From the NCBI GenBank assembly GCA_041891055.1, contig CP169074.1, positions 1,824,001 to 1,888,000 of the forward strand: a stretch of 64,000 bases of DNA, read 5' to 3'. Shown in pieces: positions 1,245 through 21,224 of this stretch (position 1 is the stretch's first letter; every line of letters begins with the position of its first letter). The DNA comes from Halorutilales archaeon Cl-col2-1. GTDB lineage: Archaea > Halobacteriota > Halobacteria > Halobacteriales > Afararchaeaceae. The notes beneath the pieces were generated by a model, which was not told the origin of the DNA, made no database searches, and worked only from the letters and a program-made list of their open reading frames with translations. Made by a program: the position numbers and the translations under genes.

Positions 1245-1293
1245 TCTCAAAATCTACGAGTTTGAGGGCTCGCTAATCGGAGATTGGCGAACG
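1245..1293 (+). repeat. double-hairpin unit (49 nt)
   Basis: CTCAAAATC-TAC-GAGTTTGAG GGCT CGCTAATC-GGA-GATTGGCG AACG; CG on both sides; removal restores GCCGTTCGCTCCTTGAGGGTG. Confidence 0.85.
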
Positions 1294-1306
1294 CTCCTTG
1301 AGGGTG

Positions 1307-1399
1307 TCGTCAGAAGTGGAGCTTCTGACTGCTCACAAATCGTAGATTTGTGATGTCTCTGAGGAGACCTCAGAGGCTCGTGAACTTTCGTTCACGATG
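1307..1399 (+). repeat. two tandem double-hairpin units (49+44 nt)
   Basis: Four hairpins (GTCAGAAG/CTTCTGAC, TCACAAATC-GTA-GATTTGTGA, CTCTGAGG-AGA-CCTCAGAG, TCGTGAAC/GTTCACGA); removal restores GAGGGTGGGGCTTCC, the partner arm of CCCCACCCT. Confidence 0.85.
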
Positions 1400-1420
1400 G
1401 GGCTTCCTGTTTCAACGACG

Positions 1421-1466
1421 TTGTCAGACTACGTCTGACAGCCTGTCGAGGTTACCTCGACAAACG
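1421..1466 (+). repeat. double-hairpin unit (46 nt) in tnpB 3' end
   Basis: TGTCAGAC-TAC-GTCTGACA GCC TGTCGAGG-TTA-CCTCGACA AACG; ACG on both sides. Confidence 0.85.
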
Positions 1467-2665
1467 CACTTTGCATCCACGACGGTGGACGACCCACCAG
1501 TCGCGGACGTAGGGAGTGCAGTCTCCGCAGGCGTGACTTCGGCGTGTCCCACGCCTAACTCTGAAAGACCGCGTTGTAGCACGTTGTAGGCGGCGTTCTC
1601 GTCGCGGTCGGTCTCGAACCCACAGGTCGGGCAGGAATGTTCGCGCACCCACAGTTCTTTCTCAACCTCAACCCCGCACTCGGCACACTCTTGGGTCGTG
1701 CCCTCGGGTTCGACTTTCACGAAGTGCGTGTCCTCGCGGTCGCACTTGTATTCGAGGAAGTCGATGAACGTCCGCCACGACGCCGACGCTCTGTTGCGAC
1801 TATTCGACGGCAGTTGCATCATCTCGTGAACGTCAAGGTCTTCCACGGCTACGAGGTCGTACTCACGAGCGTAGTACGCTGAGAGTTTGTGCAGGAAGTC
1901 GCGACGCTTCCGTACAATACGAGCGTGGATGCGGGTCACGCGGCGGCGTTGCTCGTGCCAGTTCTTCGACCCCTTCACCTTGCGACTCAGCGCTCGTTGC
2001 TCGCGTTCGAGCCGTTCGTACTCGTCTTCGAGGTTGAGACTTCCGACCATCGTGCTGTCGGTGTCGTGAGCGTACTTGATGATGCCCACGTCGATACCAA
2101 CCATATCCTCGCGGTCAACCTCATCCAGAGCGGGTTTCTCGGACGCGCCGTCTTCGGTTTCGATGCCGAAGGTGGCGTACCACTCACCCGTTTTCTCTTG
2201 TTTGACCGTGACCTGTTTCACGCGGGCGTCGTCGGGGATGTCGCGGTGGAGGTGTATCGGCATCTCACCAATCTTGGAAAGGGAAAGCACGGTCTGGTCA
2301 CTCGTGTTCTTGAGTTCGAAACCAGACTGGTTGTAGGTGAGGCTCCGATACTCTCGCGGACTCTTCCACTTGAGCATCCCAACCTTGTGCCCATTCTCCT
2401 TCTTTTCTTTGAGGCGGTCGAGGTTGTCGCTGACGCGGCGGGCAACCATTTGCAACACTTTCGAGTACACGTCGGTGAGGTCGTCCCACCAATCTTTCAG
2501 GTCGGGAAGCATATTCTGCATCGCGGTGTACGATAGGTACTCGTCCGTGTTGCGGAGTTCGTACAAGTAGTGGTTGTAGAGTTGCCTACAGGCATCTATA
2601 TGCCGTTCTAGTTCAGATTGAACGGCTTCGTCGGGGTCGATGCGATATCTGTAGTTGTAGTTCAT
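1424..2665 (-). CDS. tnpB: RNA-guided endonuclease TnpB
   Basis: N-terminal YRYRIDP HTH; RuvC GIDVG / VEDL / DRDENAA; Zn finger CAEC..CPTC. Confidence 0.95.
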   Translation of the reverse strand: MNYNYRYRIDPDEAVQSELERHIDACRQLYNHYLYELRNTDEYLSYTAMQNMLPDLKDWWDDLTDVYSKVLQMVARRVSDNLDRLKEKKENGHKVGMLKWKSPREYRSLTYNQSGFELKNTSDQTVLSLSKIGEMPIHLHRDIPDDARVKQVTVKQEKTGEWYATFGIETEDGASEKPALDEVDREDMVGIDVGIIKYAHDTDSTMVGSLNLEDEYERLEREQRALSRKVKGSKNWHEQRRRVTRIHARIVRKRRDFLHKLSAYYAREYDLVAVEDLDVHEMMQLPSNSRNRASASWRTFIDFLEYKCDREDTHFVKVEPEGTTQECAECGVEVEKELWVREHSCPTCGFETDRDENAAYNVLQRGLSELGVGHAEVTPAETALPTSATGGSSTVVDAKCVCRGNLDRLSDVV

Positions 2666-2669
2666 CGTG

Positions 2670-2828
2670 TTACTCGTCTTGGTCGTCGGTTTCGTCGGGG
2701 TCGCTGACGCGGATGACTTTCACGTCTGCGCCGCGCCAGTCTTTGGGAACTGTAACGTGGGCACTCCCGCCGAACTCCTTCGCTTCACGGTCAATGATTT
2801 CTTCGCCTTCTAGTTCGAATGTGCCCAT
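2670..2828 (-). CDS. DUF2080-type transposase-associated small protein (52 aa)
   Basis: Read by hand: MGTFELEGEEIIDREAKEFGGSAHVTVPKDWRGADVKVIRVSDP..., directly upstream of tnpB. Confidence 0.85.
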   Translation of the reverse strand: MGTFELEGEEIIDREAKEFGGSAHVTVPKDWRGADVKVIRVSDPDETDDQDE

Positions 2829-2892
2829 ACACAAATATATATTGGGCATATATTATATGTTTCGGTGGAGAATGACGATAGCTTACGGCTGT

Positions 2893-2942
2893 TGCAAGAT
2901 CTACGATCTTGCTATCCACAAATTCGGAGAATTTGTGACTGT
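2893..2942. repeat. double-hairpin unit (50 nt)
   Basis: GCAAGATC-TAC-GATCTTGC and CACAAATTC-GGA-GAATTTGTG; CTGT repeated at 2889 and 2939. Confidence 0.8.
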
Positions 2943-2959
2943 ATCCCCGACCTACTGCG

Positions 2960-3118
2960 TATGAAAATCGAAGATTTACTTGTGCTAGAAAACTCTACGA
3001 GTTTTCTGCATCACAGAAATCTCTGATTTCTGAAGACCCGTGAATCTTAGATTCACGGACGTCCTCAGAACGCGAAGCGTTCTGATGTGCGAACGAGACG
3101 CGAAGCGTCTCGTCAACG
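2960..3118 (+). repeat. array of three tandem double-hairpin units (51, 51, 57 nt)
   Basis: Six hairpins, e.g. AGAAAACTC-TAC-GAGTTTTCT, CAGAAATC-TCT-GATTTCTG, CCGTGAATC-TTA-GATTCACGG, TCAGAACGC-GAA-GCGTTCTGA, ACGAGACGC-GAA-GCGTCTCGT. Confidence 0.85.
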
Positions 3119-3149
3119 CTACTCACTCGCTTCGCTCGTTGTGTTGCCG

Positions 3150-3251
3150 TCCGAAAATCTTCGATTTTCGTGATCTCGGAAATCTACGATTTCCGACGGT
3201 ACGCGAATCCTTGATTCGCTCGATCACGAGAGAGCGAAGCTCTCTCGAACG
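3150..3251 (+). repeat. two tandem double-hairpin units (50+52 nt)
   Basis: CGAAAATC-TTC-GATTTTCG, TCGGAAATC-TAC-GATTTCCGA, GCGAATC-CTT-GATTCGC, CGAGAGAGC-GAA-GCTCTCTCG. Confidence 0.85.
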
Positions 3252-3297
3252 ACTCCTTAAGGACGGGGACTTAGCCTGTAAGAGTGAAAATCAGAAG

Positions 3298-4359
3298 CTA
3301 CGCCAGGTTCCCCACGACGTTCTCTATCACGTCGACTGCGTTCCTGAACTCGGAGATCTCTATGTGTTCGTCGGGGGTGTGGTCAAGGTTCGAGTCGCCG
3401 GGTCCGTAGGTCACCATCGGACAGTCCCACGACTCGGCGAAGACGTTCATGTCACTCGTCCCCGTCTTGACCGAGAGACCCATGTCGCCGTCCTCGTCAC
3501 GTATCGACCGCGTAAAGGCACGCACGACGGGGTTCGATCTGTCAGCCATAACGGGCTCCGTCGACTCTCCGAAGTAGAGGTCGCCGTCTCCGACGTGTTC
3601 CCTGACTTCGCTCTTGAGCTCGTCGACAGAGTGGCTCGGGGGTATACGTATGTTGCCACGGAGCTCCGACCTGAGTTCGAAGCCGTCGGAGTCGGACTCT
3701 ATGTTGGTGGGCTTAGCCTGTAAACTCCGGAAGCCGTCCTCGTCGTCGGCGACTGTCTTGACGGCGTTCCAGAAGTCTATGACGTCCTCTATCGCATTAA
3801 CACCCGGACGTGCTGTATGTATAACCTCCCCGGTGACACGGTAACGCAGACGGAGTATGCCACGGTATCCGAGTGTGACCGTGTCCCAGCCCGACGGCTC
3901 GCCGTTTATGAGGAACTCGGGCTCTTCGCGGTTCTGTGACAGGTACCGCGCTCCGCGTCCCGACTTCTCCTCCTCGACGACCGCCGCGACGGTGATACGT
4001 CTGTCCGTATCAGTCTCGGCGTGGCGCGCCGCTCCGAGTATCATCGAGGAGAGTGGACCCTTGGCATCGACAGTCCCGCGTCCGTACATCTTACCACCCT
4101 CTATGCTCACGGGAATCTCTCCCGGAACTGTGTCCATGTGGCTCGTGAGGAGTATCTCGTCGGAACTCTCGTCTTCTGTGTTTCCGACACTCGCTATTAC
4201 GTTTCCTACCGAGTCAGTCTCGACCTCGAACCCCATCTCGGGAAGCTCTTCGAGTAGGTAGTCACGTGCCTCGCCCTCGTTCTCTGACGGGCTGTACCTC
4301 TCTACGAATCCCTTGAAGAACTCAATCTCCTCGTCGGAAGATAATGAGACGGATGTCAT
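3298..4359 (-). CDS. lysK: [LysW]-lysine/ornithine hydrolase (M20)
   Basis: [36 protein letters not shown]; cluster context. Confidence 0.92.
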
Positions 4360-4374
4360 CTTCTTGTATTTATA

Positions 4375-5544
4375 TTACAGAACTTCGTCGATCGTCTCGA
4401 CTACCCTGTCGACGTGTTCTTCCTCGACTGTAAGGGGCGGAAGGAACCGTATCACGTTGACACCCGCCGAGAGTGCGAGTATGCCGTTCTTCGCAAGCTG
4501 AGACAGGTACCGTCCGCTTCTTCCTCTGACCTGGACGCCGACCATCAGACCCTTCCCACGTACATCGACTATCCTGTCTGAGTCGAGTCCTTCTATCCCC
4601 GAGGTGAGACGTTCCCCCATCTTCTTCGCGTTCTCGGCGAGGTCGTTCTCGACTATGTAGTCGAGAGACGCACGTGCCGCCGCCGATGTCACGGGGTTTC
4701 CACAGTAGGTTCCGCCGTGGCTTCCCTTCGGTATCTCTGCCATCTCTTCTGTGTAGACGACCGCGCTTATCGGAGTGCCTCCCCCAAGAGACTTCGCCGT
4801 CGTGAGAGCGTCGGGGGTGACGTCGTAATGCTCGTGGCTCCAGATCTCACCCGTCCTTCCGAGACCCGCCTGTATCTCGTCGAAGACGAGGTAAGCGCCG
4901 TGGTCATCACACAGGTCACGCGCCGCTTCTAAGTAGTCCTCGTTGGCGGGGTATATTCCCCCCTCGCCCTGTATGGGTTCGAGGAGTACCATCGCAGTCT
5001 CGTCGTCGACAGTCTCCTTGAGGTCGTCTACGTCGTTGTAAGACGAGAACTCGAACTCGGGGACGACGGGCTCGAAGGGCTCCCTGTACTTCGACTTCCA
5101 CGTCGCCGATATAGAGCCGTAAGTACGTCCGTGGAAACCTCTCTTTGCGGCGACTACCTTCCGGCTGTCGTCGTCAGTCGACCCCCTCGCGAACTTGATA
5201 GCAGTCTCGTTCGCCTCGGTTCCTGCGTTCGTGAGGAAGACCTTGTCGAGAGCCTCGGGTGTGATCTCGACGAGACGTTCCATCAGCTTTCCTCTCTCGG
5301 GGGTGGCGTACGACGCCTGTGCGTAGGTGAATTTCTCAGCCTGTTCTTTTATCGCATCGACTACCTCGGGGTTCGAGTGTCCGACCGCCATCACTCCGTA
5401 CGACGCTCCGAAGTCGAGGTACTCGTTCCCGTCGTGGTCGTAGACGTAGACGCCGTCACCCGACTCCACGGTTATGGGCTTCTTCGAGAAGACTTCCTCG
5501 TACCTCTTTTCCCTCTGAATTATGTCCTGGCTGTCCTCAGTCAT
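4375..5544 (-). CDS. lysJ: [LysW]-semialdehyde transaminase (class III PLP)
   Basis: FHGRT, EPIQGEGG, DEIQAGLGRTG, TAKSLGGG. Confidence 0.92.
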   Translation of the reverse strand: MTEDSQDIIQREKRYEEVFSKKPITVESGDGVYVYDHDGNEYLDFGASYGVMAVGHSNPEVVDAIKEQAEKFTYAQASYATPERGKLMERLVEITPEALDKVFLTNAGTEANETAIKFARGSTDDDSRKVVAAKRGFHGRTYGSISATWKSKYREPFEPVVPEFEFSSYNDVDDLKETVDDETAMVLLEPIQGEGGIYPANEDYLEAARDLCDDHGAYLVFDEIQAGLGRTGEIWSHEHYDVTPDALTTAKSLGGGTPISAVVYTEEMAEIPKGSHGGTYCGNPVTSAAARASLDYIVENDLAENAKKMGERLTSGIEGLDSDRIVDVRGKGLMVGVQVRGRSGRYLSQLAKNGILALSAGVNVIRFLPPLTVEEEHVDRVVETIDEVL

Positions 5545-6349
5545 TCTTATTAGTGAATACAGTTCCGTTTCCTTCGAGTGCTTGAGTCACGGGTGACTTT
5601 ACGTTCGCCGACGCGAATACGACTTCGGTCGCTCCCTTGTCGAGAGCCTCACGCGCCGCCATGACCTTCTTCTTCATCTTGCCCTCGGCGTACTTCTCTA
5701 TGACGTCGTCTATCTCGTCGTAGCCGACCTTCTCGATTAAGCTGTCTTCGTCGTCGGGGTCACGCAGAAGACCCGGGACGTCGGAAAGTATGGCGAGACG
5801 GCTTCCGAGTGCTCCCGCGACTGCCGCTGCCGACCGGTCGGCGTCTGTGTTGACAGCCGTACCCTCGTACGAGATCATGGGCACCGAGACTACTGGGGTG
5901 TAGCCGGCGTCGAGATGCATAGAGAGGAGTTCGTCGTTGACCTTCTCTATCTTGCCCGAGTGATCCCCTCTCATGACCTTCTTCCTGCCGTCTTCCTTGA
6001 CTATCACGGTGTCCTTTCTCTCTCCCTCTAGGAGACGTCCGTCGACTCCCGAGAGACCGACTGCGTCGACACCGCGTGACTGGAGCCCCTCGACGAGGTC
6101 GGTGTTTACGAGACCGGGCATAGCCATCTTGAAGATCTCCATCGAGTCCTCGTCTGTGAAACGTCCCTTGACTCCCGACGCGCTCGTGACATACGTCGGC
6201 TCGGTTCCGAGCCTCTCGTGGAGCCCGTCGACTACACCGCTTCCACCGTGGACGACTACGAAGCTGTCTTCTTCTATACCGGCTAAGTCGTCGAGGACGT
6301 TCTCGGGATCTACTCCGCTCGTGCCGCCTATCTTGACTACGAATGTCAT
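5537..6349 (-). CDS. lysZ: [LysW]-aminoadipate/glutamate kinase
   Basis: VVKIGG, VHGG, NTDADR, GKMKKK. Confidence 0.92.
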   Translation of the reverse strand: MTFVVKIGGTSGVDPENVLDDLAGIEEDSFVVVHGGSGVVDGLHERLGTEPTYVTSASGVKGRFTDEDSMEIFKMAMPGLVNTDLVEGLQSRGVDAVGLSGVDGRLLEGERKDTVIVKEDGRKKVMRGDHSGKIEKVNDELLSMHLDAGYTPVVSVPMISYEGTAVNTDADRSAAAVAGALGSRLAILSDVPGLLRDPDDEDSLIEKVGYDEIDDVIEKYAEGKMKKKVMAAREALDKGATEVVFASANVKSPVTQALEGNGTVFTNKND

Positions 6350-7368
6350 ACTGGATGTAGTCCCGTGTGTTCTAACCCGGCTGTCTCGTCGAATCCGAAC
6401 GCAATGTTCATGTCCTGCACAGCGGTTCCCGCGCTTCCCTTCATCATGTTGTCTATCGCGGAGAACGCCACCACGCGACCGTCTCCGATCTCGAATCCGA
6501 CGTCACAGTAGTTGGTTCCCTCGACTATCTTCGGCTCGGGGTATCTGTAGACCCCCCGGCGCGAGTTGGCTATACGTACGAAGGGCTCGTCGGAGTAGGT
6601 CGACTTGTAGGCTCTCTTGAGGTCAGCCTTCGATACGTCTTCCTCGGGGAAGACGTGTGCCGTCGACGCTATTCCACGCACTAGCTCTATGGCGTGGACG
6701 GTCATGCTCACGTCGAGCCCTGTCTCCTGGGTGATCTCCGCCTGGTGTCTGTGGCTCGTCGGAGCGTACGGACGCACTGTCCTCGACCTCTCGGCGTGGT
6801 GCGACGCCTTGTTCGCGCTCGCTCCTCCCGCGCTCGAACTCGTCTTGACGTCTAGTACGACGTTGTCGTTTTCGTCCACGATATCCTCCTCGACGAGAGG
6901 ATAGAGACCGAGTATCGCCGCGGTCGCGTTACAGCCTGGAGCGGCGATGAGGTCGGCGTCCCGGATGTCTTCCCTGTAGAGCTCGGGCACCCCGTATACG
7001 GCGTCGTCGAGAAGATCCGTGTTGGGATGCGGGTCGTACCATCTGTCGTAGTCGGCGGGGTCGTCGAGACGGTAGTCGCCGCTGAGGTCTATTATCTTCT
7101 CGCCGTATTCGAGAAGGTCGGGAAGCTCCTCCATCGTGTAGCCGTGGGGAGTTGCCGTAAAGAGGACATCTACCTCTTCGAGGTCGTCCGGACTCGTGAA
7201 CCTCAGGTTAGTCTTCCCCCTGAGGTTGGGATGTAGAGTCTCGACTGTCGCCCTCTCGTAAGACCGTGACGTGACCTGGCTGACCTCTACCTCGGGATGC
7301 TCTACGAGAAGGCGGAGAAGCTCTCCGCCCGTGTATCCGCTTCCGCCTATGATGCTAGCTTGAATCAT
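6346..7368 (-). CDS. lysY: [LysW]-phosphate reductase (ArgC family)
   Basis: GGSGYTGGE, DLSGDYR, PGCNAT, IDNMMKGSAG. Confidence 0.93.
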   Translation of the reverse strand: MIQASIIGGSGYTGGELLRLLVEHPEVEVSQVTSRSYERATVETLHPNLRGKTNLRFTSPDDLEEVDVLFTATPHGYTMEELPDLLEYGEKIIDLSGDYRLDDPADYDRWYDPHPNTDLLDDAVYGVPELYREDIRDADLIAAPGCNATAAILGLYPLVEEDIVDENDNVVLDVKTSSSAGGASANKASHHAERSRTVRPYAPTSHRHQAEITQETGLDVSMTVHAIELVRGIASTAHVFPEEDVSKADLKRAYKSTYSDEPFVRIANSRRGVYRYPEPKIVEGTNYCDVGFEIGDGRVVAFSAIDNMMKGSAGTAVQDMNIAFGFDETAGLEHTGLHPV

Positions 7369-8224
7369 AATTCTCCTCTATGTAGTCGACGTACTCCGAC
7401 GCGACGTCTATTCCGGTCGCCTCGGTGAGTGCCTTGAACTCTAAGCTGTGGTTGACCTCGTGTACGGTGTATCCGTCGTCGGTCTCCATTACGTCGACCC
7501 CTAAGACGCCTCCACCGACTGCTTCGGCTGCGTCGAGGGCGACTTCTTCGAGTTCGTCGGTAACATCGCAGTTCGACGCCTCGCCCCCTCTCGCGGCGTT
7601 CGTGATCCATTCGTCGCTCGAACGGTAGATCGCTCCTACGATATCGTCTCCGGCTACAATCACACGTATGTCACGTCCGGGCTTGTCGACGTAGTTCTGT
7701 ATGTAGAAGACAGAGTGCTCGTAATGACCAAGGACGTCCTTATGTTCGAGGACTGCCTCCGCCGACTCGGGGTCGTTTATCTTCGCCAAGAGACGTGCCC
7801 ACGAGCCTATAACGGGCTTGACTACGACGGGGTATCCCATCTCGTCTATAGTATCGAGTGCCGAGTCGATGGTGAACGCCACTCTTGTCTTGGGGGTCGG
7901 CACGCCGTTCTCAGTCAGAGCGAGCGAAGTCTCTACCTTGTTCCCACAGACGCGTGAGACCTCATATCCGTTGAGGGTCGGCACTCCGTACGACTCGAAG
8001 AACCTCACCGAGTAGAGCCCGCGCGAGTAACTTATCGCACGGTTGACGACGACATCGAGGTCTTCTACGTCTACGTCAGCTCCCTCGATCCCCGATGCTC
8101 CACTCAGTCCCAGAGAGACGTCGCGTGTGTCTATCTTGACGACGTCGTGTCCTCTGTCCCTCAGCTCGTTGAGGAGTAGCTTCTCGTCCTTACGTATACG
8201 GGAATAAAGGAAGCCGACCTTCAT
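7355..8224 (-). CDS. lysX: LysX/ArgX ATP-grasp ligase
   Basis: KPVIGSWARL, GRDIRV, WITNAARGG, HEVN. Confidence 0.93.
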   Translation of the reverse strand: MKVGFLYSRIRKDEKLLLNELRDRGHDVVKIDTRDVSLGLSGASGIEGADVDVEDLDVVVNRAISYSRGLYSVRFFESYGVPTLNGYEVSRVCGNKVETSLALTENGVPTPKTRVAFTIDSALDTIDEMGYPVVVKPVIGSWARLLAKINDPESAEAVLEHKDVLGHYEHSVFYIQNYVDKPGRDIRVIVAGDDIVGAIYRSSDEWITNAARGGEASNCDVTDELEEVALDAAEAVGGGVLGVDVMETDDGYTVHEVNHSLEFKALTEATGIDVASEYVDYIEENYDSS

Positions 8225-11372: not shown

Positions 11373-11914
11373 TACAGTTCGCGTTCCCCTCTAACTCCTT
11401 TCTGACCTCTAACCTTCTGACTCTGAACCTCTTTCTCCACCCATGTCTAAAACGTACTTTGTGCTGTTTAACTGTGATATCTAATATTAGGGGATTATCT
11501 TAGGACACTAAGTACTGGTTTAATCTAATTTCTAATATTAGACTGGGATTTGTGTCGGAGAACTTCTGAGATCCGCGACTCCTGGGGTCTCGTGAACCGA
11601 GGATTCACGACCAGGTACGTAGATCTTTGATTTGCTTTACCGTGAAGCCTCGGAAACACCCAACTTCGAGGTACTAATCCTCTGAATCTGCCCGGTCTCG
11701 GAAAACCCGTTTCCGACCCCTCTAATGTAGGGGGTTCGACGGTATTAGAGTAATAATCCGTATCTGTAGACTACTGTATCTCTGTCTCAAACTCTCTGAT
11801 ATACCCCTATACACGGCAGATAGACACTACATAAATCTTATTCCGCTATACAGTCACCCGGTATTTCCCAACTACTTACTGTATAGAGAAGATACGTGTA
11901 TACGGTGAAAACAG

Positions 11915-12154: not shown

Positions 12155-12616
12155 ATGTCAGACTCCTCGAAGTCGAACGAAAAGGACTGGGAGAACGGTC
12201 TCAAGAGTGAGCCCGTGACGACGTATGTGAGTTACGAGACGAAGGAGATCTGGAAACAACACGCCGAAAACCTCGATACCACACTCAGCCGGTTCGTCGA
12301 GATGATGGTAAACGCGGGAAGATCGATGTACGACGACACCGCTCCTGAGGGATACGAGGACTCGGATCTCGTCTCGGCGAACCGTGAGATTCAGGCTCTC
12401 AGAGACCGGATCGAGGAGATAGAGTCACATCCTGAGTCGGCTGATCCCATAGATGTCTATACGTCTCTCGGCGAGGGCTATGTCACCGTAGACGAGATAT
12501 CCGAGTCGATGGAGTACTCCGAGTCGGAGGTCTACGAGGCACTTCAAACTCTTCTCGACGAGGAGGTCGTCGAGTACGACCCCATGAGGAACGCATACAG
12601 GAGGACGGATGCGTAG
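12155..12616 (+). CDS. DUF5805-like protein (RHH + wHTH) upstream of xerA
   Basis: VTTYVS..K..W..HA...SRFV.MV.AGR; overlaps the integrase start. Confidence 0.8.
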   Translation: MSDSSKSNEKDWENGLKSEPVTTYVSYETKEIWKQHAENLDTTLSRFVEMMVNAGRSMYDDTAPEGYEDSDLVSANREIQALRDRIEEIESHPESADPIDVYTSLGEGYVTVDEISESMEYSESEVYEALQTLLDEEVVEYDPMRNAYRRTDA

Positions 12617-13721
12617 GATAGGTGCTCAAGACCCACTCGACGAGGTCGAGGATCTCGAAGATCACGACTTCATCTCTTACTTCATCGAGGACATGGAAGC
12701 GTATGGCAAATCTTCCTCAACGCTCTACGAGTACGAACGTGTTCTGCGTGACTTCGACGACTTCACTGACACCCACCACGCGCGCGCCTCGAGACGTGAC
12801 TGCATGGGCTATATCTCCGACCTCCGTAGTCGGGGACTCTCAGCGTCGACGGTCTCGACCTATGCCTCCTATCTCCACAGATTCTACTCGTACCTCGTCA
12901 AGGCGGACGAGTTCCCCCACTCTAACAACCCGATGGCTCTCGTCACTGAGGAGATGAGCGAGGGAATAGACAAGAATCCCCAGAGACGTGAACTCTCGGT
13001 CACCGACGTCACTGAGTTCCTCAAGACTGTGAATCACCCGAGGGACAGATGTATACTCGTCACCCTCTTCAAGACGGGGATGCGCGCGGGTGAGCTTTCG
13101 AACCTCAAACTCGAAGACATCTCACTGACTACTGACCTCGACGATGAGTTCGGTCTCGGTGGAAACGCGCGTCTGAGTCGGAACTCACTCCTCGTCGTTA
13201 GCGACAGAGACGGAAACAAACGTCTGCGTGACACTCTGATCCCCATCGACGACGAGCTCAGGAAAGAGCTCGTGAGATGGCTGCGTGTGCGTCCCGAGAA
13301 TGGTAGTTCTCGTGGGCGCGTGAATCAGAAGATTCACGAACGTCTCGAAGCGGAAGCTTCGATGGCTCGGAAATCAGAGATTTCCGAACGTCCCGAGACT
13401 GACTCGGACGCCGTCTTCGTCTCTCTCAGCAGAGCGTCCGAGACGGGAAGTCTCAGCCCTGAGGCGGTCTCTTCCCTGATGAGGAAGTACACTCAGCCTT
13501 ACGGCTGGTGGGAGGAGGGAAGAGGTCTTGAGGAAAACGTCACCCCGCATTACTGCCGCCATTTCTTCACGACCCATCTCAGAGAGGCTTCGGGAGACGA
13601 CGCCCTCGTCAAGTACCTAAGAGGCGATGTCGGCGGAGACGTGATCGAGACCTACACCCATCAGTGGGGTGACAACGTCCGTGAGAGCTATGAGAAGTAC
13701 ATATACCGTCTCGTTTCCTGA
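12609..13721 (+). CDS. xerA: tyrosine recombinase XerA-like, with a 33-aa in-frame repeat insertion
   Basis: TGMRAGE, GNKR, PHYCRH, RGD, catalytic Y in ETYTH. Confidence 0.9.
   Translation: MRRIGAQDPLDEVEDLEDHDFISYFIEDMEAYGKSSSTLYEYERVLRDFDDFTDTHHARASRRDCMGYISDLRSRGLSASTVSTYASYLHRFYSYLVKADEFPHSNNPMALVTEEMSEGIDKNPQRRELSVTDVTEFLKTVNHPRDRCILVTLFKTGMRAGELSNLKLEDISLTTDLDDEFGLGGNARLSRNSLLVVSDRDGNKRLRDTLIPIDDELRKELVRWLRVRPENGSSRGRVNQKIHERLEAEASMARKSEISERPETDSDAVFVSLSRASETGSLSPEAVSSLMRKYTQPYGWWEEGRGLEENVTPHYCRHFFTTHLREASGDDALVKYLRGDVGGDVIETYTHQWGDNVRESYEKYIYRLVS
13292..13390 (+). repeat. two tandem double-hairpin units (51+48 nt) in frame in xerA
   Basis: CGAGAA/TTCTCG, CGTGAATC/GATTCACG, TCGAAGC/GCTTCGA, TCGGAAATC-AGA-GATTTCCGA; CGTCCCGAGA at 13290 and 13389. 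Confidence 0.9.
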
Positions 13722-14153: not shown

Positions 14154-16319
14154 ATGGGTAATCTCTCGAAGCTCTTCTCGCCTTCACGTGTCGCAGTAAT
14201 TGGAGCGACCGATAGGGAGGGGTCTGTCGGACGTGTGGTGACACAGAACCTCGTCTCGGGGTTCGAGGGAGAGGTGATCGCTGTCAATCCCAACAGGGAC
14301 GAGGTTCTCGGACTTCCGACTTACACCGACGTCGGCTCCGTTCCGGGTGAGATAGACCTGGGCGTCGTAATAGTGCCGGCTCCCGTGGTTCTGGAGGTTC
14401 TCGAAGAGATGGGGAAAGCTGGCGTCACGAACGCCGTCGTCATAACCGCGGGGTTCTCGGAGGCGGGCGACGAGGGGAAGGCGAGAGAGGAGAGGCTGAA
14501 GGAGATCGCCGACGAGTACGGAATCAGCCTCGTAGGTCCCAACTGTATAGGAATAGTAAGTAGTGATTCGGGTCTCAACACGACCTTCACGACCGTGAAA
14601 TACTCGAAGGGAGCCACGTCTTTCATGAGCCAGTCGGGGGCTCTCATAGGTGCAGTCCTCGAATGGGCACCCTCTCACAACATGGGTTTCAACCAAGTCG
14701 TCTCTCTCGGCAACAAGGCTGTACTCGACGAGACCGACTTCATCGAGGACTGGAGTGACGACCCCGACACCGACGTAGTGATGGCATATCTCGAAAGCAT
14801 TGAGGACGGGAGACGTTTCATCAAGAAGACACGTGAGGCTGTGACTGAGACTCCCGTAGTCGCTCTCAAGGCGGGTAGGTCCGAGAAAGGATCGAGGGCG
14901 GCGTCTTCACACACGGGGGCTCTCGCTGGGAGCGACGAGGCGTACGACTCCGCCTTCAGACAGTCAGGCGTCATAAGAGCTGAGACACTTCTCGAACTCT
15001 TCGACTACAGTGACACGCTCGCTGATCAGCCGGTTCCCGAGAAGGACGGCTTAGCAGTGGTCACCAACGGTGGAGGACCCGGGGTCATAGCTACCGACGC
15101 GGTCAGTGACTCGATCGTCTCGTTCGCGGATCTGAGCCACGAGACCGTCGACTACCTCGAAGACCGTCTCCCCGAATCGGCTGTCGTTGAGAATCCTCTC
15201 GACATAATAGGAGACGCAGACGTCGACAGGCTGTCTGACTCACTCGATGCAGTTCTTGGAGATCCTGACGTCGGCGGTGCTCTCGTCATAGTCACTCCGA
15301 ACGGAGTCCTCGACTACAGAGAAGCCGTCGATCCGATAGAGGAAATCCAGAGACGTCACTCGAAGCCCGTAGTGACTTGTATGATGGGCTCCAACGACGA
15401 GACGAGCCAGAGGCTGAGTCAAGCAAACCTACCCGACTTCTTCGATCCTGAGAGGGCGGTCGGGAGCTACGAGGCTCTTGAGAGGTACAGACGTATAAGA
15501 CAGAGATCCCGGGAAGAGAGACACGTCACGGAGTTCGACGTCGACGAGGGGAGGGCACGCGGGATAATCCGAGAAGCCGTCGAAGAGGGTCGTAACCGTC
15601 TCGGCGTCGAGTCGATGGAGATACTCGATGCCTACGGGATACCCACTCCCGACGGCACTGTCGTCGAGACAGCCGACGAAGCCGACGAGGCGGCACGCAG
15701 TATCGACTCCGAAACCGGTACTGTCGTCCTCAAGATAGTCAGCCCCGACATAAGCCACAAGACAGACGTCGGCGGTGTCAGAACGCGTGTCTCCCCAGAC
15801 GACGTCAGAGACGTCTTCTCGGAGATGGTCGAGGAGGTTCGAGACAGACGTCCCGAAGCCGAGATAGAAGGTATTCTCGTACAGGAATCTGTCGACGTCT
15901 CGAAGGGCGAGGAGGTCATAGTCGGTGCGAGAAGCGATCCTCAGTTCGGTCATCTCCTCGTGTTCGGTCTCGGAGGTGTATTCGTCGAGGTCTTCAAGGA
16001 CGTCTCTTTCCGTGTCCCACCTGTCACTCAGCGAGAGGCGGAGGAGATGACCCGCGAGATAGAGTCGGCACCTCTCCTCCGAGGTGCGAGAGGACGTGAC
16101 CCCCTCGATACCGACGGTGTCACTGAAGTCATACAGAGGCTGTCGCAGATGGTGACCGAGATAGATGCGATCGAAGAAGTCGAGGCTAATCCTGTCTTCG
16201 TGGGAACTGGCGGCGTTCAGAAATCTTCTATTTCTGATTCTGAGGACGTCAACCGAAGATTGACGGATGTCGTTGCGCTTGACTTCCGTATGACGGTCGA
16301 CGAGAGCCGGGTCGGTTAA
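14154..16319 (+). CDS. acdAB: ADP-forming acyl-CoA synthetase (fused alpha/beta)
   Basis: VAVIGA, GPNCIG, SQSGA, SHTGALAG, NPLDIIGDA, HKTDVGGV, EANP. Confidence 0.92.
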   Translation: MGNLSKLFSPSRVAVIGATDREGSVGRVVTQNLVSGFEGEVIAVNPNRDEVLGLPTYTDVGSVPGEIDLGVVIVPAPVVLEVLEEMGKAGVTNAVVITAGFSEAGDEGKAREERLKEIADEYGISLVGPNCIGIVSSDSGLNTTFTTVKYSKGATSFMSQSGALIGAVLEWAPSHNMGFNQVVSLGNKAVLDETDFIEDWSDDPDTDVVMAYLESIEDGRRFIKKTREAVTETPVVALKAGRSEKGSRAASSHTGALAGSDEAYDSAFRQSGVIRAETLLELFDYSDTLADQPVPEKDGLAVVTNGGGPGVIATDAVSDSIVSFADLSHETVDYLEDRLPESAVVENPLDIIGDADVDRLSDSLDAVLGDPDVGGALVIVTPNGVLDYREAVDPIEEIQRRHSKPVVTCMMGSNDETSQRLSQANLPDFFDPERAVGSYEALERYRRIRQRSREERHVTEFDVDEGRARGIIREAVEEGRNRLGVESMEILDAYGIPTPDGTVVETADEADEAARSIDSETGTVVLKIVSPDISHKTDVGGVRTRVSPDDVRDVFSEMVEEVRDRRPEAEIEGILVQESVDVSKGEEVIVGARSDPQFGHLLVFGLGGVFVEVFKDVSFRVPPVTQREAEEMTREIESAPLLRGARGRDPLDTDGVTEVIQRLSQMVTEIDAIEEVEANPVFVGTGGVQKSSISDSEDVNRRLTDVVALDFRMTVDESRVG
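16216..16269 (+). repeat. double-hairpin unit (54 nt) in frame in acdAB
   Basis: TCAGAAAT/ATTTCTGA plus CGTCAACC-GAA-GATTGACG; removal restores NPVFVGTGGVVALD. Confidence 0.85.
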
Positions 16320-16324
16320 GATAT

Positions 16325-18061
16325 TTAGTCCTTAGACGACGGTACTGGTGTCAGAGGTTTGTTTTTCCCGTCCCTGAGGCGCACCGTGACAACGGTTCCT
16401 CGCGGCTCCCTGTCTTCGAACTCCAGGTCTCCACCTGATCTCTTGACTATCCAGTGGACGAGCCAGAGTCCGAGACCGCTTCCGTGGTATAAGGGCTCTA
16501 TCTCCCGTTCGTCGCCGAGAACCCCGATGTCCGAATCGGGTATCCTTGATCCGTTGTCCGAGACTCTTATCTCGACCGAGGTGTCGGATTTCTCGACCTC
16601 GACAGACACACGTGGCGTCTCCGTGTCGTTGTGCTCGACAGCGTTGTTGACTAACTCGTCTACTGCACGCGGTATCTGAGGGACTACGTAGGCTGTCGTC
16701 TCTGAGTCTGGGGTGTGAACCTCTATCTCAGCTTCGGGGTATCTCTCCTCATACTCCGAGAGTCTCCTCTCGACTGTCTCGGCGATGTCGACCTCCTCGG
16801 GCGGCGACCTGTCGGAGATTATCTCGACTAACTCGCGTTCCTTGTCAGTGGTGTCGAGCAGACGGTTGCCGACCTCACGTATCTTCTCGGCATATCTTCT
16901 CTCGTCGTCTGTCAGGGACTCCGACTCAGAAAGTTCCTCCGAGTAGCCGAGTATTATGTTCATCTTGTTATGCATGTTGTGGCGGAGGACACGGTCGAAG
17001 ACCTCGAGGTGCTTCTGTCTCTCCTTGAGTTCGCTGTTGAGGACTCGAAGCTCCTTCTCTCTCTTAATACGGTCGAGTGTCGCCTTTGCGTTTCTCGCGA
17101 GTGTCTCGACGAAACGCACGTCTGAGTCGTCGAAAGCTGCCTTGTGTGTCTCACCGACGCTCACGGTTCCGTACCCCTCTATCGGGACGTACATCACCGA
17201 TCTAACGTCTTTCCTGTCGTACTCCGTCTCGACTTCACGTATGTCGTCGAAGACGTATGTCTCCGACTCCCTGTACGCTTTCCCAGCAAGGCTGTCGTGT
17301 ACAGGATACGTCGGCGTTCCGCCTCTGACTTCCTCCGTCTCTGACGTTGACGACACAATAACGAGCTCTTCACTGTCGTCGTCTGTGAAACGCACTCCGT
17401 TTGCGGGGAACCCGAGTACATTCTTCGTCGCCTTGACGATTCTCTGAGCCACCTCGTCGGCGTCGTCGGCGTCTATTAGCTCACGTGTCGTCTCGTGTAG
17501 GCTAGTGAGTATCTCTTCGCTCCTCTGTAGTCTCTCGACGTTCTTCCTCTGGTCTATGGCAAGCTTGAGAAGAGACGCGACTGTCTTTCCTGCGTTTACG
17601 GCGTGGTCGTCGTACTCAGTCTCCTCGCTCGACTCGGGTGCTCCTGTTCCTATGAGTCCGTGCTCACCCACGGGAATCATTATCCCAGACCCCACCGGGA
17701 GTTCGGGATGAACTTCGCTGACATCGTAGATGCTTATGCCGTCACTCTCGAACTGATCCCATTCCAGGTCGTGTCTTCTAATCTCCGTAGGAGCGAACTC
17801 GTCTGCCGACTCGGTTGCTTTTACGAGATTCAGACGTTCTTCCTCCTCATCACGTATCCAGCAAGCCCCGAACGGCAGATCGACTATGTCTGTGAGAGAA
17901 TCCACGGCGATCTCACACAGCCTGTCGATATCTTTCACCCTGTCGTCCTGGAGCCTCCGCGCTGCCTCGTAGACAGACCTGACGGTCTTACCCGGGTCTG
18001 CGTCGAAGTCTGTGCCGGAGTCAGAGCCTGAGGACTGTCCCTCCGAGCCTTTATCCCTCAT
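16325..18061 (-). CDS. GAF-domain sensor histidine kinase
   Basis: Two GAF-like regions, LRHNMHN H-box, ELVNNAVEH, DNG, GSGLGLW. Confidence 0.9.
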   Translation of the reverse strand: MRDKGSEGQSSGSDSGTDFDADPGKTVRSVYEAARRLQDDRVKDIDRLCEIAVDSLTDIVDLPFGACWIRDEEEERLNLVKATESADEFAPTEIRRHDLEWDQFESDGISIYDVSEVHPELPVGSGIMIPVGEHGLIGTGAPESSEETEYDDHAVNAGKTVASLLKLAIDQRKNVERLQRSEEILTSLHETTRELIDADDADEVAQRIVKATKNVLGFPANGVRFTDDDSEELVIVSSTSETEEVRGGTPTYPVHDSLAGKAYRESETYVFDDIREVETEYDRKDVRSVMYVPIEGYGTVSVGETHKAAFDDSDVRFVETLARNAKATLDRIKREKELRVLNSELKERQKHLEVFDRVLRHNMHNKMNIILGYSEELSESESLTDDERRYAEKIREVGNRLLDTTDKERELVEIISDRSPPEEVDIAETVERRLSEYEERYPEAEIEVHTPDSETTAYVVPQIPRAVDELVNNAVEHNDTETPRVSVEVEKSDTSVEIRVSDNGSRIPDSDIGVLGDEREIEPLYHGSGLGLWLVHWIVKRSGGDLEFEDREPRGTVVTVRLRDGKNKPLTPVPSSKD

Positions 18062-18127
18062 ATGACACCGTTCCTACAACCCTACACGACTGAGGATAAT
18101 AGATTTTTGGGAGGTTTATAAGGAGCC

Positions 18128-18310
18128 TCAGGCAATCTCGCCGAAGGAGCCGAAGTACCTGTCGAGTGCTGCCTCAACTGCTTCGTCTTCGTCGTCGAAC
18201 TCGTCGAGTGCCTCACTCAGAAGCTCCAGGAAGTAGGAGTCGTTGACGAGACGGCTCGCGTTACGTCTCGTGAGTCTGCGTCCGTCGTCGGAATCTGTGT
18301 TCTTCCTCAT
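18128..18310 (-). CDS. small hypothetical protein
   Basis: 60-aa acidic ORF co-oriented with neighbours. Confidence 0.5.
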   Translation of the reverse strand: MRKNTDSDDGRRLTRRNASRLVNDSYFLELLSEALDEFDDEDEAVEAALDRYFGSFGEIA

Positions 18311-18354
18311 CCTCTGCGCCCTAAGTCTTCCTCGTTGAAGAAACTGTCTGTGGT

Positions 18355-18711
18355 TTACACGAGATCGGCTTCTGGGTCGCCTTTAGTTTTGTAGAGATCG
18401 TCCCAGGCGGTTATGCCGCCTTGAAGGTTGTAGATCTCGTCGAAGTCGTCGAGGTTGGAGAGGAAGTCGCAGGCGTCCTGACTTCTCGATCCGCTGTGGC
18501 AGTAGACGAGGAGTTTGTCGCCTTCTATCTCGTCGACCCTGTCCGGGAGTATTTCGACCGGTATCAGATGGTCGACGCCGGGTACTCTCTTCCACTCGTA
18601 CTCGTCGGGATTCCTCACATCGAGGAGAGTATAATCGCCGCCCTCTACCATCTCCTTTGCTTCGTCAGGTGTTACGTCGTTGAAGTTCTGATTCTGTGTT
18701 ATCTCTTTCAT
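18355..18711 (-). CDS. rhodanese-like sulfurtransferase
   Basis: LLDVR..EY, YCHSGSRS, NLQGGI.AW. Confidence 0.9.
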   Translation of the reverse strand: MKEITQNQNFNDVTPDEAKEMVEGGDYTLLDVRNPDEYEWKRVPGVDHLIPVEILPDRVDEIEGDKLLVYCHSGSRSQDACDFLSNLDDFDEIYNLQGGITAWDDLYKTKGDPEADLV

Positions 18712-18768
18712 ATTACAACTGTAGTACCACAGCCATATAAGTCTTACCACCACTGAAGAATGGTGGTG

Positions 18769-19371
18769 TTATTTCAGCGCAAGGATCGACTCGCCTGCTC
18801 TAACTGTGTCACCCTCATCGACTTCGAGGTCGTCACGTGAGTATCCGCTAGGAAAGACGATGTCGACGCGTGAACTGAACGCAATCATTCCTATGCGTTC
18901 GCCCCTTTCTACGGAGTCACCTTCATCGAGGTAGGACGTCACTCGTCTCGCGACTGTGCCCGCTATCTGTACCGTCTCTAACTCTCCGTCCGGGGTCTCG
19001 AACCGTGTTACCACGCGCTCGTTTCTCTCGCTTGACTTCGAGAAGGCAGGGAGATGACTTCCGTCTATATGTGTCTGTGATACGACCTTTCCGTCGAGAG
19101 GAGCTCTGTTGACGTGGACGTTGTGGAGGTTCATGAAGACGCCGACGCGGAGCCCTCCCTCCTCCTGCCTTACGACTGAGACACGTCCGTCGGCGGGAGA
19201 GACGACGCCCTCGTCAGGCACGTCACGGTCGGGGTCTCTGAAGAAGGCGGCGATGAGTACGGGAACGCCTAGAAGAGACAGGCTTAGGGGGGAGTCCCAG
19301 AACGGCACTGCGACGAGTGGGAGACAGCCCAGTAGAATCCATCCCAGGGAGCCTTCTGCTAGTCTCGGCAT
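18769..19371 (-). CDS. psd: archaetidylserine/phosphatidylserine decarboxylase
   Basis: FFRDPDR, SPADG, FMNLHNVHVNRAP, NER, QIAG, FSSRVD. Confidence 0.9.
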   Translation of the reverse strand: MPRLAEGSLGWILLGCLPLVAVPFWDSPLSLSLLGVPVLIAAFFRDPDRDVPDEGVVSPADGRVSVVRQEEGGLRVGVFMNLHNVHVNRAPLDGKVVSQTHIDGSHLPAFSKSSERNERVVTRFETPDGELETVQIAGTVARRVTSYLDEGDSVERGERIGMIAFSSRVDIVFPSGYSRDDLEVDEGDTVRAGESILALK

Positions 19372-19460
19372 TTAACGTTGAGACGCCGACTTGACGGTTA
19401 AGGATTTCCGTCCACTAGTGTCAACTACCCCACCCTACTTCGCTCGGTCTGACGACCTCA

Positions 19461-19557
19461 TCTGTAAATCTTTGATTTACAGGCACGCGAATCGAAGATT
19501 CGCGAACGTCTCAAACTCTACGAGTTTGAGGGCTCGGAAATCAGAGATTTCCGAACG
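19461..19557 (+). repeat. two tandem double-hairpin units (48+49 nt) in the IS right end
   Basis: CTGTAAATC-TTT-GATTTACAG, CGCGAATC-GAA-GATTCGCG, CTCAAACTC-TAC-GAGTTTGAG, TCGGAAATC-AGA-GATTTCCGA. Confidence 0.9.
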
Positions 19558-20899
19558 CTCGTTGAGAATGGGGCTTGTCCATGTACTCAACCTCTAACCT
19601 CTCGGTGGAGGAACTACCCTCACTCGGTTTCAGTGTACCGGACTTAAGGGCAAGTTGACACGTTGCCCGTCCGTCCTGTGACTTTTGCACACGACGGACG
19701 TGTTGCGAATCGTTAGATTCGCATACGTCTGCAAAGCTTTGCTTTGTAACATAACGAAGACCGACATTCTTAGAAGCGTTGTAGTCTGCGTCTACCGAAT
19801 ACCCACACTCTCGACACTCAAAGTCGTGTTTCGTCCTGCGGTTACTTCGGTCGGTGTGTCCACAGCGAGAACAAGTCTGACTCGTGTACTCTGGATTCAC
19901 CGACTCGACAGAAACGCCGTACTCTTCGGCTTTGTACTCCACGAACGCGACGAACTGATTGAACGCCCACTGCTGAAACTCTTTGTTGTTCGAGATACGC
20001 TCACGGATGCCGTCAAGCTCCTCGAACACAATAGTAGAACAGTCGTAGCGTACAGCCTCTTCTACGATTTCGTTAGCCCACTTGTGGTACTTCTGATTAC
20101 TCCACTGGCTGAAACGGTCGCCCATACGTTCTATGACCTCGTGAGCGCGACGCGAGCCGTTTCGTTGGAGTGACGCACGCCTACTCTCGTATTCGTCACG
20201 TTCGTGGTTGATATGGTCGCTTGAACCTACGAACCGCCCCGTAGAGGTGACGGCGAAGCTACCTGTGCTGTTCAGGTCTACACCGAGAACCGTTCGCAAA
20301 TCTTCAATCTGCGAGCCATCGAAGCTCCCGCTTCGAGACGTTCCGCTCTCGGTTTCTCCTACGTCCTCTTCTTTCACGACTGAGATATGCAGGTAGTAGT
20401 CGCCGCCCCTGTGGTGTAGCGTCGCCTCTTTCCGTCCCCACTCTTCGGAAAGGTACTCTGTCTGGGGGTTGTCGCCCGTTTCGTCAATCACGAAGTCGGC
20501 TTGTACACGCCCGTCCACGGTTGCGAGAGTACAGCCTTCGTCGGTATACGTGACGGTTCGGTAGTCGTAGGCGACGAACCAACTCTGGAACGTGGGTTTG
20601 GTGGCTTGTTCGCCTTCTTTCCACCGGTTGATTACCTGTTGTAGGCTGTCTACGGCGTAGTCACGCGCCTTCTGTATCAGTCCGGTGTTGAGTCCGGTCT
20701 GTTCCTTGATGTCATCGTAGGTCTGTTCGTGTAGCCACGTCTTGCGCGTGTCTATGTGACCGCCGTCAGTTCGGTTGTTCCATGCGTAGTCTACGGTGTA
20801 CTGACATGCTTCTCGGAACGCCCTGAACGTCTCTCGTAGGCGTTCCTCGTCGGAGCCGTCAACGTCAAGCTTGACCTGTACAGTACGCCGTAGCTCCAT
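19541..20899 (-). CDS. tnpB: RNA-guided endonuclease TnpB with two in-frame repeat insertions
   Basis: RTVQVKL start; GVDLN, FEEL, TSQTCSRCG..CRECG, DADYNAS. Confidence 0.93.
   Translation of the reverse strand: MELRRTVQVKLDVDGSDEERLRETFRAFREACQYTVDYAWNNRTDGGHIDTRKTWLHEQTYDDIKEQTGLNTGLIQKARDYAVDSLQQVINRWKEGEQATKPTFQSWFVAYDYRTVTYTDEGCTLATVDGRVQADFVIDETGDNPQTEYLSEEWGRKEATLHHRGGDYYLHISVVKEEDVGETESGTSRSGSFDGSQIEDLRTVLGVDLNSTGSFAVTSTGRFVGSSDHINHERDEYESRRASLQRNGSRRAHEVIERMGDRFSQWSNQKYHKWANEIVEEAVRYDCSTIVFEELDGIRERISNNKEFQQWAFNQFVAFVEYKAEEYGVSVESVNPEYTSQTCSRCGHTDRSNRRTKHDFECRECGYSVDADYNASKNVGLRYVTKQSFADVCESNDSQHVRRVQKSQDGRATCQLALKSGTLKPSEGSSSTERLEVEYMDKPHSQRAFGNL
19701..19751. repeat. double-hairpin unit (51 nt) in frame in tnpB
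   Basis: TGCGAATC-GTTA-GATTCGCA and TGCAAAGC-TTT-GCTTTGTA; adds VTKQSFADVCESNDSQH. Confidence 0.85.
20291..20338 (-). repeat. double-hairpin unit (48 nt) in frame in tnpB
   Basis: Minus strand TCTCGAAGCGGGAGCTTCGATGGCTCGCAGATTGAAGATTTGCGAACG; CGTTC at 20291 and 20339. Confidence 0.9.
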
Positions 20900-20994
20900 G
20901 CTTATATATTATATCTATACTTACTTAGTTCTTGTGGGGTAATTTACCCACTCAAAGCACTAAGGCTTAAGTAGTGGTGGTCTATATCACCACC

Positions 20995-21138
20995 ATGGCA
21001 GAAGTCAGAGTACAAAATCCAGACATACACGAAGAGAAGACAGCAGATGGAAAGGGACGTGTATATTTGGGCAAAGATTATGAGAACAGGAAGGTCAGAA
21101 TAGTGGTGGAAGTAGTTGACGACGAACCGGAAGAGTAG
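20995..21138 (+). CDS. small AbrB/DUF2080-like IS-associated protein (47 aa)
   Basis: Read by hand: MAEVRVQNPDIHEEKTADGKGRVYLGKDYENRKVRIVVEV... Confidence 0.7.
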   Translation: MAEVRVQNPDIHEEKTADGKGRVYLGKDYENRKVRIVVEVVDDEPEE

Positions 21139-21152
21139 GAGTTGACGGGCTG

Positions 21153-21224
21153 TCACAAAATCTCCGATCTTGTTGGCTCGCTAATCTATGATTAGCGGGC
21201 ACGTAAATCTTAGATTTACGAACG
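21153..21224 (+). repeat. triple-hairpin unit (72 nt) in the IS left end
   Basis: ACAAAATC-TCC-GATCTTGT, CGCTAATC-TAT-GATTAGCG, CGTAAATC-TTA-GATTTACG joined by GGCT/GGCA linkers, ends AACG. Confidence 0.85.

Follow-up and report, generated by a model that had tools for sequence, protein, structure and literature searches.

Short two-hairpin units in and around TnpB elements of a Halorutilales archaeon as probable mini mobile elements with recombining hairpins

Introduction

Elements of the IS200/IS605 family carry subterminal imperfect hairpins, have no inverted repeats and insert beside a short specific motif. Their 'peel and paste' transposition and the TnpB guide RNAs encoded at their right end (RE) have been described previously (Meers et al. 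2023, PMC10055086; Gomes-Filho et al. 2015, PMC4615843). Several groups of small palindromic repeats have been described as well: palindrome-associated transposable elements (PATEs), including 'terminal-only' forms of 52 bp, reported from Haloquadratum and Natronomonas along with IS605-type transposons (Dyall-Smith et al. 2011, PMC3119063); REP, BIME and REPIN repeats with RAYT transposases in bacteria (Bertels and Rainey 2011, PMC3116915; PMC3337134); and CGTC-tagged palindromic repeats, which that account describes in bacteria only (Di Nocera et al. 2013, PMC3733652). Here we analyse short two-hairpin repeat units found in and around the TnpB elements of a 64,000-nucleotide (nt) stretch, the window, of the genome of Halorutilales archaeon Cl-col2-1 (G000; positions 1,824,001 to 1,888,000 of CP169074.1; loci outside the window are given by contig, C1 or C2). 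We favour, with moderate confidence, the reading that the units are non-coding mini mobile elements of about 48-49 nt belonging to the haloarchaeal IS200/IS605 (IS1341-type TnpB) world, and that their hairpin combinations arise through independent insertion, homology-driven recombination and low complexity, with no dedicated cut in the linker needed. On this reading they would offer a small natural model in which the multiplication, stacking and recombination of hairpin-based selfish DNA can be studied, with units close to the smallest size that a mobile element can have.

Like PATEs, the units are haloarchaeal, lack terminal inverted repeats and are not long enough to encode a protein, and as with the PATE palindromes, which are related to IS200/IS605 ends, the same modules are found here downstream of tnpB and after the sole tnpA gene; strain-specific presence or absence, heterogeneity, repeat-mediated deletions between palindromes and the targeting of mobile elements by other mobile elements are further features in common with the published description (PMC3119063). 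The SMR-A repeats of Haloquadratum, as portrayed in the same account, are likewise small and non-coding and prefer the near-terminal palindromes of PATEs and IS605-type elements, but they are ~110 bp long with prominent inverted terminal repeats (PMC3119063). The units, in contrast, are 48-49 nt long with no inverted ends. Unlike a PATE, a unit consists of two different hairpins in tandem rather than two ends around a core or one surviving palindrome, and units stack to 14 hairpins, sit inside a conserved RE without forming it and occur in frame in genes. Among described systems, PATEs with their terminal-only forms and SMR-A repeats come nearest to the units, and the same hairpins may already be catalogued.

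In bacterial BIMEs a small number of hairpin types and linker motifs combine into mosaic clusters, and the arrays seen here, with their recurrent linkers, are alike in this respect. The likeness to REP and REPIN systems lies in short high-copy hairpins and a presumed single-copy HUH/Y1 transposase acting on single-stranded hairpins. Here, however, the sole Y1 is an ordinary IS200/IS605 TnpA encoded beside tnpB and not a RAYT, its gene has an array on one side only instead of being flanked by repeats, and the hairpins form head-to-tail pairs of two different kinds with a CGTC-like tag, not GTAG, in an archaeal host. With the CGTC repeats the units share a CGTC-like motif at the foot of an 8-9-bp stem, subsets that are heterogeneous in stem and loop, intragenic in-frame copies and the lack of an own transposase (PMC3733652). 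The loops of 4-5 nt, the A/T at the first two stem positions, the CCA tail and the mostly head-to-head dimers given for those repeats differ from the pattern here, where most loops have 3 nt, and our modules lie at IS200/IS605 ends, whereas in that text no CGTC repeat adjoins an IS200-type gene (PMC3733652). The units also resemble IS200/IS605 elements in subterminal hairpins, a possible short insertion motif, the absence of inverted repeats and a presumed non-coding RNA overlapping the tnpB 3' end; unlike them, the units are far smaller than any known characterised member, and putative cleavage sites would abut the hairpins. The in-frame insertions in open genes (one xerA-like gene and 3 of 29 tnpB genes) further recall RPE-like intragenic palindromic elements.

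Results and Discussion

One unit consists of two abutting hairpins, ~48-49 nt in total, with stems of 8-11 bp and loops of 3 nt in most copies. In unit 1245-1293 (+) the order is left hairpin, GGCTCG linker and right hairpin, the latter with a core AATC-N3-GATT and a conserved mismatch near the stem base; the palindromes fill the 48-49 nt, leaving no terminal inverted repeats and no space for a transposase gene. The core is present in 194 copies in the 2.06-Mb genome (55% G+C). With a spacer of 0-2 or 4-8 nt instead, the count is 4-18, and a reversed control pattern has 11 copies; the repeat family is therefore far beyond chance. Watson-Crick bases form the two pairs beside the core in 145 and 144 (86-87%) of the 167 distinct copies, against shuffled means of 65 and 47 (28-39%), and all four pair types are present, which amounts to covariation; the sixth stem pair, a conserved mismatch or wobble, is Watson-Crick in just 13% of copies. 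Folding of six units as single-stranded DNA gave z-scores between -2.3 and -5.6, each structure having two or three hairpins. The consensus of the 53 units that could be oriented and compared (see below) has the foot acgtc, a stem beginning with C or G and, on the tag strand, the tail (T/G)GG, with the two differing hairpins in tandem, while loops occur in both orientations relative to the flanks (50 vs 21). The number of hairpins per array ranges from 2 to 14, odd numbers (3, 5 and 9) included, and the same linkers recur; a lax hairpin finder, with a background almost equal to its signal (2234 vs 2618 hairpins per Mb), was used only for arrays of at least 3 hairpins.

The units were found inside the REs of IS200/IS605 (TnpB) elements, in gene-less relatives of these elements, as solo intergenic copies and in frame in genes. 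Among 33 domain matches in the genome, 29 are full-length tnpB open reading frames (ORFs). The core motif forms 105 clusters, 30 of them within a tnpB ORF call or at most 600 nt away and the other 75 elsewhere. An alignment of nine paralogous ends, together with a list of 33 ends from this genome and from segments of a second genome of the genus (G001), gave an RE design with, in order, a terminal segment, a small hairpin, the unit site and the 3' arm of a long-range helix. This one site holds no unit in 7 copies, one in 7, two in 3 and at least three in 1, and otherwise like ends carry different units there. In the first TnpB element of the window, element 1, the terminal RE segment (1203-1244, -) is conserved across haloarchaeal genera, its 42 nt being 95-98% identical in 49 plasmid records, and unit 1245 is nested in the RE directly beside it. 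At the DNA level element 1 is related to copies on haloarchaeal plasmids, which carry annotations for TnpB and a DUF2080 protein, and the plasmid match ends at 1244-1245, the exact start of the unit, in 15 of the 15 matches listed. The plasmid elements of Halorientalis and Halopenitus have neither unit 1245 nor the four further hairpins (two units) at 1307-1398 (+), which are without counterpart in the plasmid relatives and are common to the paralogous ends C1:1160971 and C1:1018972. Since the plasmid match stops at the unit start and the relatives have no unit, the units are, by these alignments, add-ons nested in a conserved RE and not the RE itself.

The unit-insertion site is enclosed by the long-range helix, in which four C, a variable triplet and CCT pair with AGG, the complementary triplet and four G. 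TnpB elements and their gene-less relatives both have this helix at their ends, in the window at 1207-1306 and 2945-3275, and at least four triplet variants each have a matching partner, again a case of covariation; in element 1 its 5' arm is split by ~96 nt of hairpins, those at 1307-1398. The helix is probably part of the guide-RNA scaffold or of a transposon-end fold. Given a covarying helix around units that lie in the guide-RNA-encoding region downstream of tnpB, the strong covariation of the unit stems and the G-T wobble or mismatch conserved near the stem base, the arrays could be regarded as functional RNA structures of the host or the element, such as an expanded scaffold of the TnpB guide RNA, elements that stabilise transcripts, or terminators, whose variety would come from selection on RNA. 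We regard this as highly improbable, the least probable of the explanations discussed here: Rfam and tRNA searches of the window gave no match at gathering score, a permissive Rfam scan of 1100-3400 gave two chance-level matches only, units are also present in frame in genes and at unrelated intergenic sites, almost all of them are polymorphic between two congeneric species, and relatives in other genera work without any unit.

The behaviour of the units was followed by comparison with G001, a same-genus draft genome that is 90-98% identical in syntenic DNA and has the same family (167 cores vs 9 for a control pattern). About 18 insertions or deletions (indels) between this genome, G001 and paralogous copies correspond to whole two-hairpin units or multiples of them, with sizes of 48-49, 54-55, 94-105 and ~194 nt, and are bounded at the ACG|TC inter-unit junction or at an array edge. 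The 48-nt unit at 19458-19505 (+), both of whose hairpins are of the AATC type, is shared with a paralogue and missing from the G001 orthologue, and at C1:259774-259959 ~194 nt comprising four units stand against a clean empty site in G001. Further differences from G001 were found at C1:1621362 (+48 nt), C1:1634092 (~+94 nt) and C1:1618569 (~+54 nt), and presence/absence polymorphism was seen for a two-hairpin element of 54-55 nt. A gene-less, RE-like and PATE-like element of at least 12 tandem hairpins, which adjoins element 1 at 2878-3281 (+), has with its paralogues (C1:1509680, and in G001 contigs C5 and C1) 0, 1 or 2 extra units at one internal site, and an all-against-all comparison of 131 array loci gave nine further whole-unit cases. 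The comparison therefore shows fast turnover of units between two species of one genus. The original prediction had named the single ~24-nt hairpin as the exchangeable module, a claim that these whole-unit indels do not support. Head-to-tail arrays of up to 14 hairpins can be understood from the fact that a unit's own end recreates the ACG|TC junction. When the four-unit array at C1:259774 was compared with plasmids, no match was found at E <= 1e-3. Metagenome joints inside arrays (3064->3263, 3171->3222 and 19457->19506) have flanks of at most 30 nt that may stem from other repeat copies, and were not used.

Units are also found in frame inside genes that stay open, namely an xerA-like gene and three tnpB genes. 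The xerA-like gene (12609-13721, +) codes for a tyrosine recombinase with a Pfam Phage_integrase domain and an NCBIfam XerA_Arch score of 121 bits, under the cut-off of 220. It contains an in-frame insertion of 99 nt, or 33 codons, at 13303-13401 (+), which comprises two units and in unit phase reads 13292-13342 and 13343-13390, its placement being ambiguous within a 13-nt imperfect direct repeat. The insert is absent from G001 and from more distant orthologues, and metagenome contigs from 3 runs in 2 studies join 13300 to 13400 without it; because the outgroup orthologues lack the 99-nt segment, the difference can be polarised as an insertion. No exact donor was found in the genome, where the best partial match is 91% over 70 nt with the array at C1:259773. 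In the tnpB of the second TnpB element of the window, element 2, a 48-nt unit lies in frame at 20291-20338 (-), just upstream of the first RuvC motif, and an insert of ~15-16 residues made of one such unit is present at the same position in 3 of 29 aligned TnpB proteins. The three insert-bearing proteins, the other two at C1:129998 and C1:219456, belong to different subfamilies. Recurrent in-frame insertion at a single point would account for this, as would exchange from one tnpB gene to another. Units lengthen a chromosome-resolution recombinase and TnpB proteins by 16-33 in-frame residues; by invading guide-RNA-encoding TnpB ends they may also disable or alter RNA-guided nucleases of genome-editing interest.

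The original prediction was that half-units are shuffled combinatorially, with the GGCTCG linker serving as a second cleavage and joining point. The matches on which it was built were confirmed on rereading the sequence. Left half plus linker of unit 1245-1293 match those of unit 19509-19557 (+) at 27 of 28 positions, and 19531-19557 is identical over 27 nt to 13364-13390, inside the xerA-like ORF. The left half of 13343-13390 agrees at 26 of 27 positions with the minus-strand unit 20338-20291, whose right hairpin is different and degenerate, and the array at 21152-21224 (+) has three hairpins, of which the middle one has the same stem as the right hairpin of unit 1245 with a different loop. 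To quantify the pattern, 71 of the 194 cores were given an orientation from flanks agreeing at 8 or more of 10 positions (the other 123 were not orientable), 63 were left after dropping contexts at least 90% identical, and the 53 with an upstream hairpin formed the test set. Among its 1378 pairs, 42 have left halves differing at no more than 2 positions; in 32 of these the right halves differ at 4 or more positions, and 7 have near-identical right halves too, where 1.43 would be expected under independence. Conversely, the left halves differ at 10 or more of 26 positions in 26 of the 47 pairs with near-identical right halves. Left and right distances over the 53 units are hardly congruent (Mantel r = 0.146, P ~0.001) and so do not show the agreement between the two halves that would have spoken against the prediction; the part of the prediction that states that halves are dissociated and occur in many combinations therefore holds.

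In the right hairpin just 2 base pairs and the 3-nt loop vary, and 1.5% of the 1378 random pairs have right hairpins identical over 25 nt; with so few variable positions, a 27-nt match between right halves says little in favour of exchange. The same low variability could be taken to mean that no exchange occurs at all, the units descending vertically within diverging transposon ends while one half is constrained, the other hairpin drifts with compensatory changes and identities arise by chance. This view would suit the six copies that share one left hairpin, five of them at the same RE position of related elements, as well as unit 19509-19557, which is unchanged between species ~10% apart in the spanning alignment, and another orthologous hairpin that differs by one loop base. 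It is nevertheless improbable, since the same RE site holds from none to at least three units, like ends carry different ones and relatives in other genera have none, and since it is in the hairpin that differences are concentrated: between two ends with 93% identity across 137 nt, for example, 4 of the differences lie in the five central bases plus one arm. Chimeric hairpins and clean empty sites moreover show physical rearrangement.

A rearrangement that acts specifically on single hairpins would be the opposite explanation, in which each ~24-nt hairpin is an independent cassette and a transposase cuts and joins at the GGCTCG linker and at the unit ends, with site-specific swapping as a result. 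The strong dissociation of the halves agrees with such swapping, as do the odd-numbered array at 21152-21224 and the other arrays of 3, 5 and 9 hairpins, and REP-associated Y1 transposases have been reported to cut on either side of a hairpin. The statistics of association, however, give the linker no special place. Excess mutual information is 0.21 bit between left type and right stem (P = 0.01), 0.25 bit between the right stem and its own loop (P = 0.006) and 0.05 bit between left type and right loop (P = 0.27); as a stem and its own loop are about as weakly associated as the two halves, dissociation is not special to the linker. Exchange would in any case seem to map there, because the linker is the invariant stretch between two variable hairpins, within which breakpoints are unresolvable, and the mapping to the linker is partly an artefact.

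The indels point in the same direction. Besides the ~18 of ~24 catalogued events that are bounded at ACG|TC or an array edge, 5-6 further indels break within hairpin cores, with 12-21 nt shared at the breakpoint. These comprise two 49-nt, one 25-nt and two 74-nt deletions, the 25-nt and 74-nt events having 13-21 nt of shared core at the breakpoint, and several of them leave chimeric hairpins whose arms no longer match, the mismatched arms indicating that the direction in these cases was deletion. None of the ~24 indels requires a breakpoint in the GGCTCG linker. Linker cutting and the single-hairpin module, the other part of the original prediction, are thus not supported by the catalogue, and the site-specific cassette explanation is improbable. 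Shuffling itself is real, and is probably a by-product of recombination among modular repeats.

The mechanism that we propose for the mini mobile elements would combine insertion with recombination. Whole units would insert at ACG|TC junctions that the units themselves regenerate, and different units would hit the same junctions independently, which would give varied left and right partners. Look-alike hairpins, neighbouring or ectopic, could then recombine or slip at any conserved stretch, be it core, stem or linker, and deletions of 1, 2 or 3 hairpin periods would give neighbours new partners and sometimes chimeric hairpins. A crossover inside a shared stem would be invisible except for the changed partners, which is the pattern that the original prediction described, and since the hairpins are of very low complexity identical modules recur. 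Apparent shuffling at a linker in low-complexity modular repeats should therefore be read with caution, as it can come from ordinary recombination of look-alike hairpins.

The units would move as single-stranded hairpin DNA, with a single Y1 transposase presumably acting in trans. The genome contains one Y1 transposase gene (C1:979038-979397), the product of which scores 159.5 bits with the IS200/IS605 model (cut-off 55) and 26.1 bits, below the cut-off of 80, with the REP-associated one. Directly after the stop codon of the gene comes an array of six hairpins built from the same modules, and a divergent tnpB lies on the gene's other side; 211 nt of this array are found at two further genomic places with 98% identity. 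One gene-less insertion of 533 nt, at C1:533104-533636 and absent from G001, ends with one of these two copies of the 211-nt segment, and is probably a non-autonomous derivative of the tnpA-tnpB element. Of 31 genomes of the order, 15 encode a Y1 transposase, among them all six with the highest counts of the core motif; this co-occurrence is suggestive, the relatives not being independent samples. If the Y1 protein does move the units, this would help to explain the bacterial CGTC-type repeats, which have no known transposase.

Several points weigh against this reading. The role of the Y1 protein is presumed from proximity and from knowledge of the family. At the junctions, which are centred on ACG|TC, unit start and flank share 0-22 nt, at many junctions 5-22 nt (13 at xerA and 12 in one G001 case), and because of this sharing an insertion target and a target-site duplication are inseparable; the shared bases fit a spread by copy choice or recombination as well as, or better than, cut-and-paste at a target of 3-4 nt. 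The xerA insert alone is polarised by outgroups; elsewhere an apparent gain could reflect exact loss from the genome compared. Along the chromosome, unit orientation is only weakly clustered, with 16 runs vs 21.6 expected (P ~0.05 for 42 clusters; 0.09 for the 24 solo clusters), and does not track the GC-skew profile; the bias to the lagging strand for which this transposase family is known is therefore not demonstrated. Finally, the comparison covered ~187 kb of the 1.9 Mb of G001, and units were defined by the exact core motif, by which diverged copies are missed.

A bolder version, unlikely in our view, is that the 48-49-nt CGTC-tagged two-hairpin unit of haloarchaea is a mini-transposon and the smallest known client of an IS200/IS605 Y1 enzyme. 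Hairpins would then serve as left-end and right-end modules that can replace one another, and the enzyme would pair any two hairpins of an array, including those next to the linker, and so make elements combinatorially that colonise guide-RNA-encoding TnpB ends and genes. If true, it would be the first link of the 'orphan' bacterial CGTC superfamily to a transposase.

The remaining features of the two TnpB elements are as follows. The tnpB of element 1 (1424-2665, -) codes for 413 amino acids with Pfam OrfB_IS605 and Cas12f1-like TNB domains and scores 283 bits with NCBIfam guided_TnpB (cut-off 100), and a solo two-hairpin unit at 1146-1193 (+) lies just outside the right end of the element. 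The block 1144-3279, which holds this solo unit, element 1 and the 400-nt multi-hairpin element, lies between a deoxyhypusine synthase gene and lysine/arginine biosynthesis genes, and corresponds to ~11-22 unrelated bases in G001. In element 2 the terminal RE segment (19420-19457, -) is followed by the 48-nt unit mentioned above and by unit 19509, which is 100% conserved in the G001 orthologue; the tnpB (19541-20899, -; 452 amino acids as an ORF call) has a 3' end that runs into the RE hairpins, and the three-hairpin array 21152-21224 lies on the upstream side of the element.

Outside the range covered by the original prediction, another complete two-hairpin unit was found in an intergenic region at 27610-27657. 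A palindrome TCGA-N5-TCGA (950 copies) was rejected as a repeat, its abundance being a codon-usage effect. A different repeated element of several hundred bases, also with AATC-type hairpins, has at least four copies in the genome (C1:368751-369136, C1:1016148-1016556, C1:1299436-1300280 and C2:71579-72385). Two further length differences in the window involve sequences of other kinds. At 16577-16787, within an ORF for a GAF histidine kinase (16325-18061, -), an indel of ~198-211 nt was seen against G001 and metagenome contigs, which have 16 other letters in its place; it does not consist of hairpin units, and as parts of 16396-16657 match many other places in G001 it may be a repeated sensor-domain segment. 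At 11417-11447 an intergenic short tandem repeat of ~33 nt has one more copy in G001.

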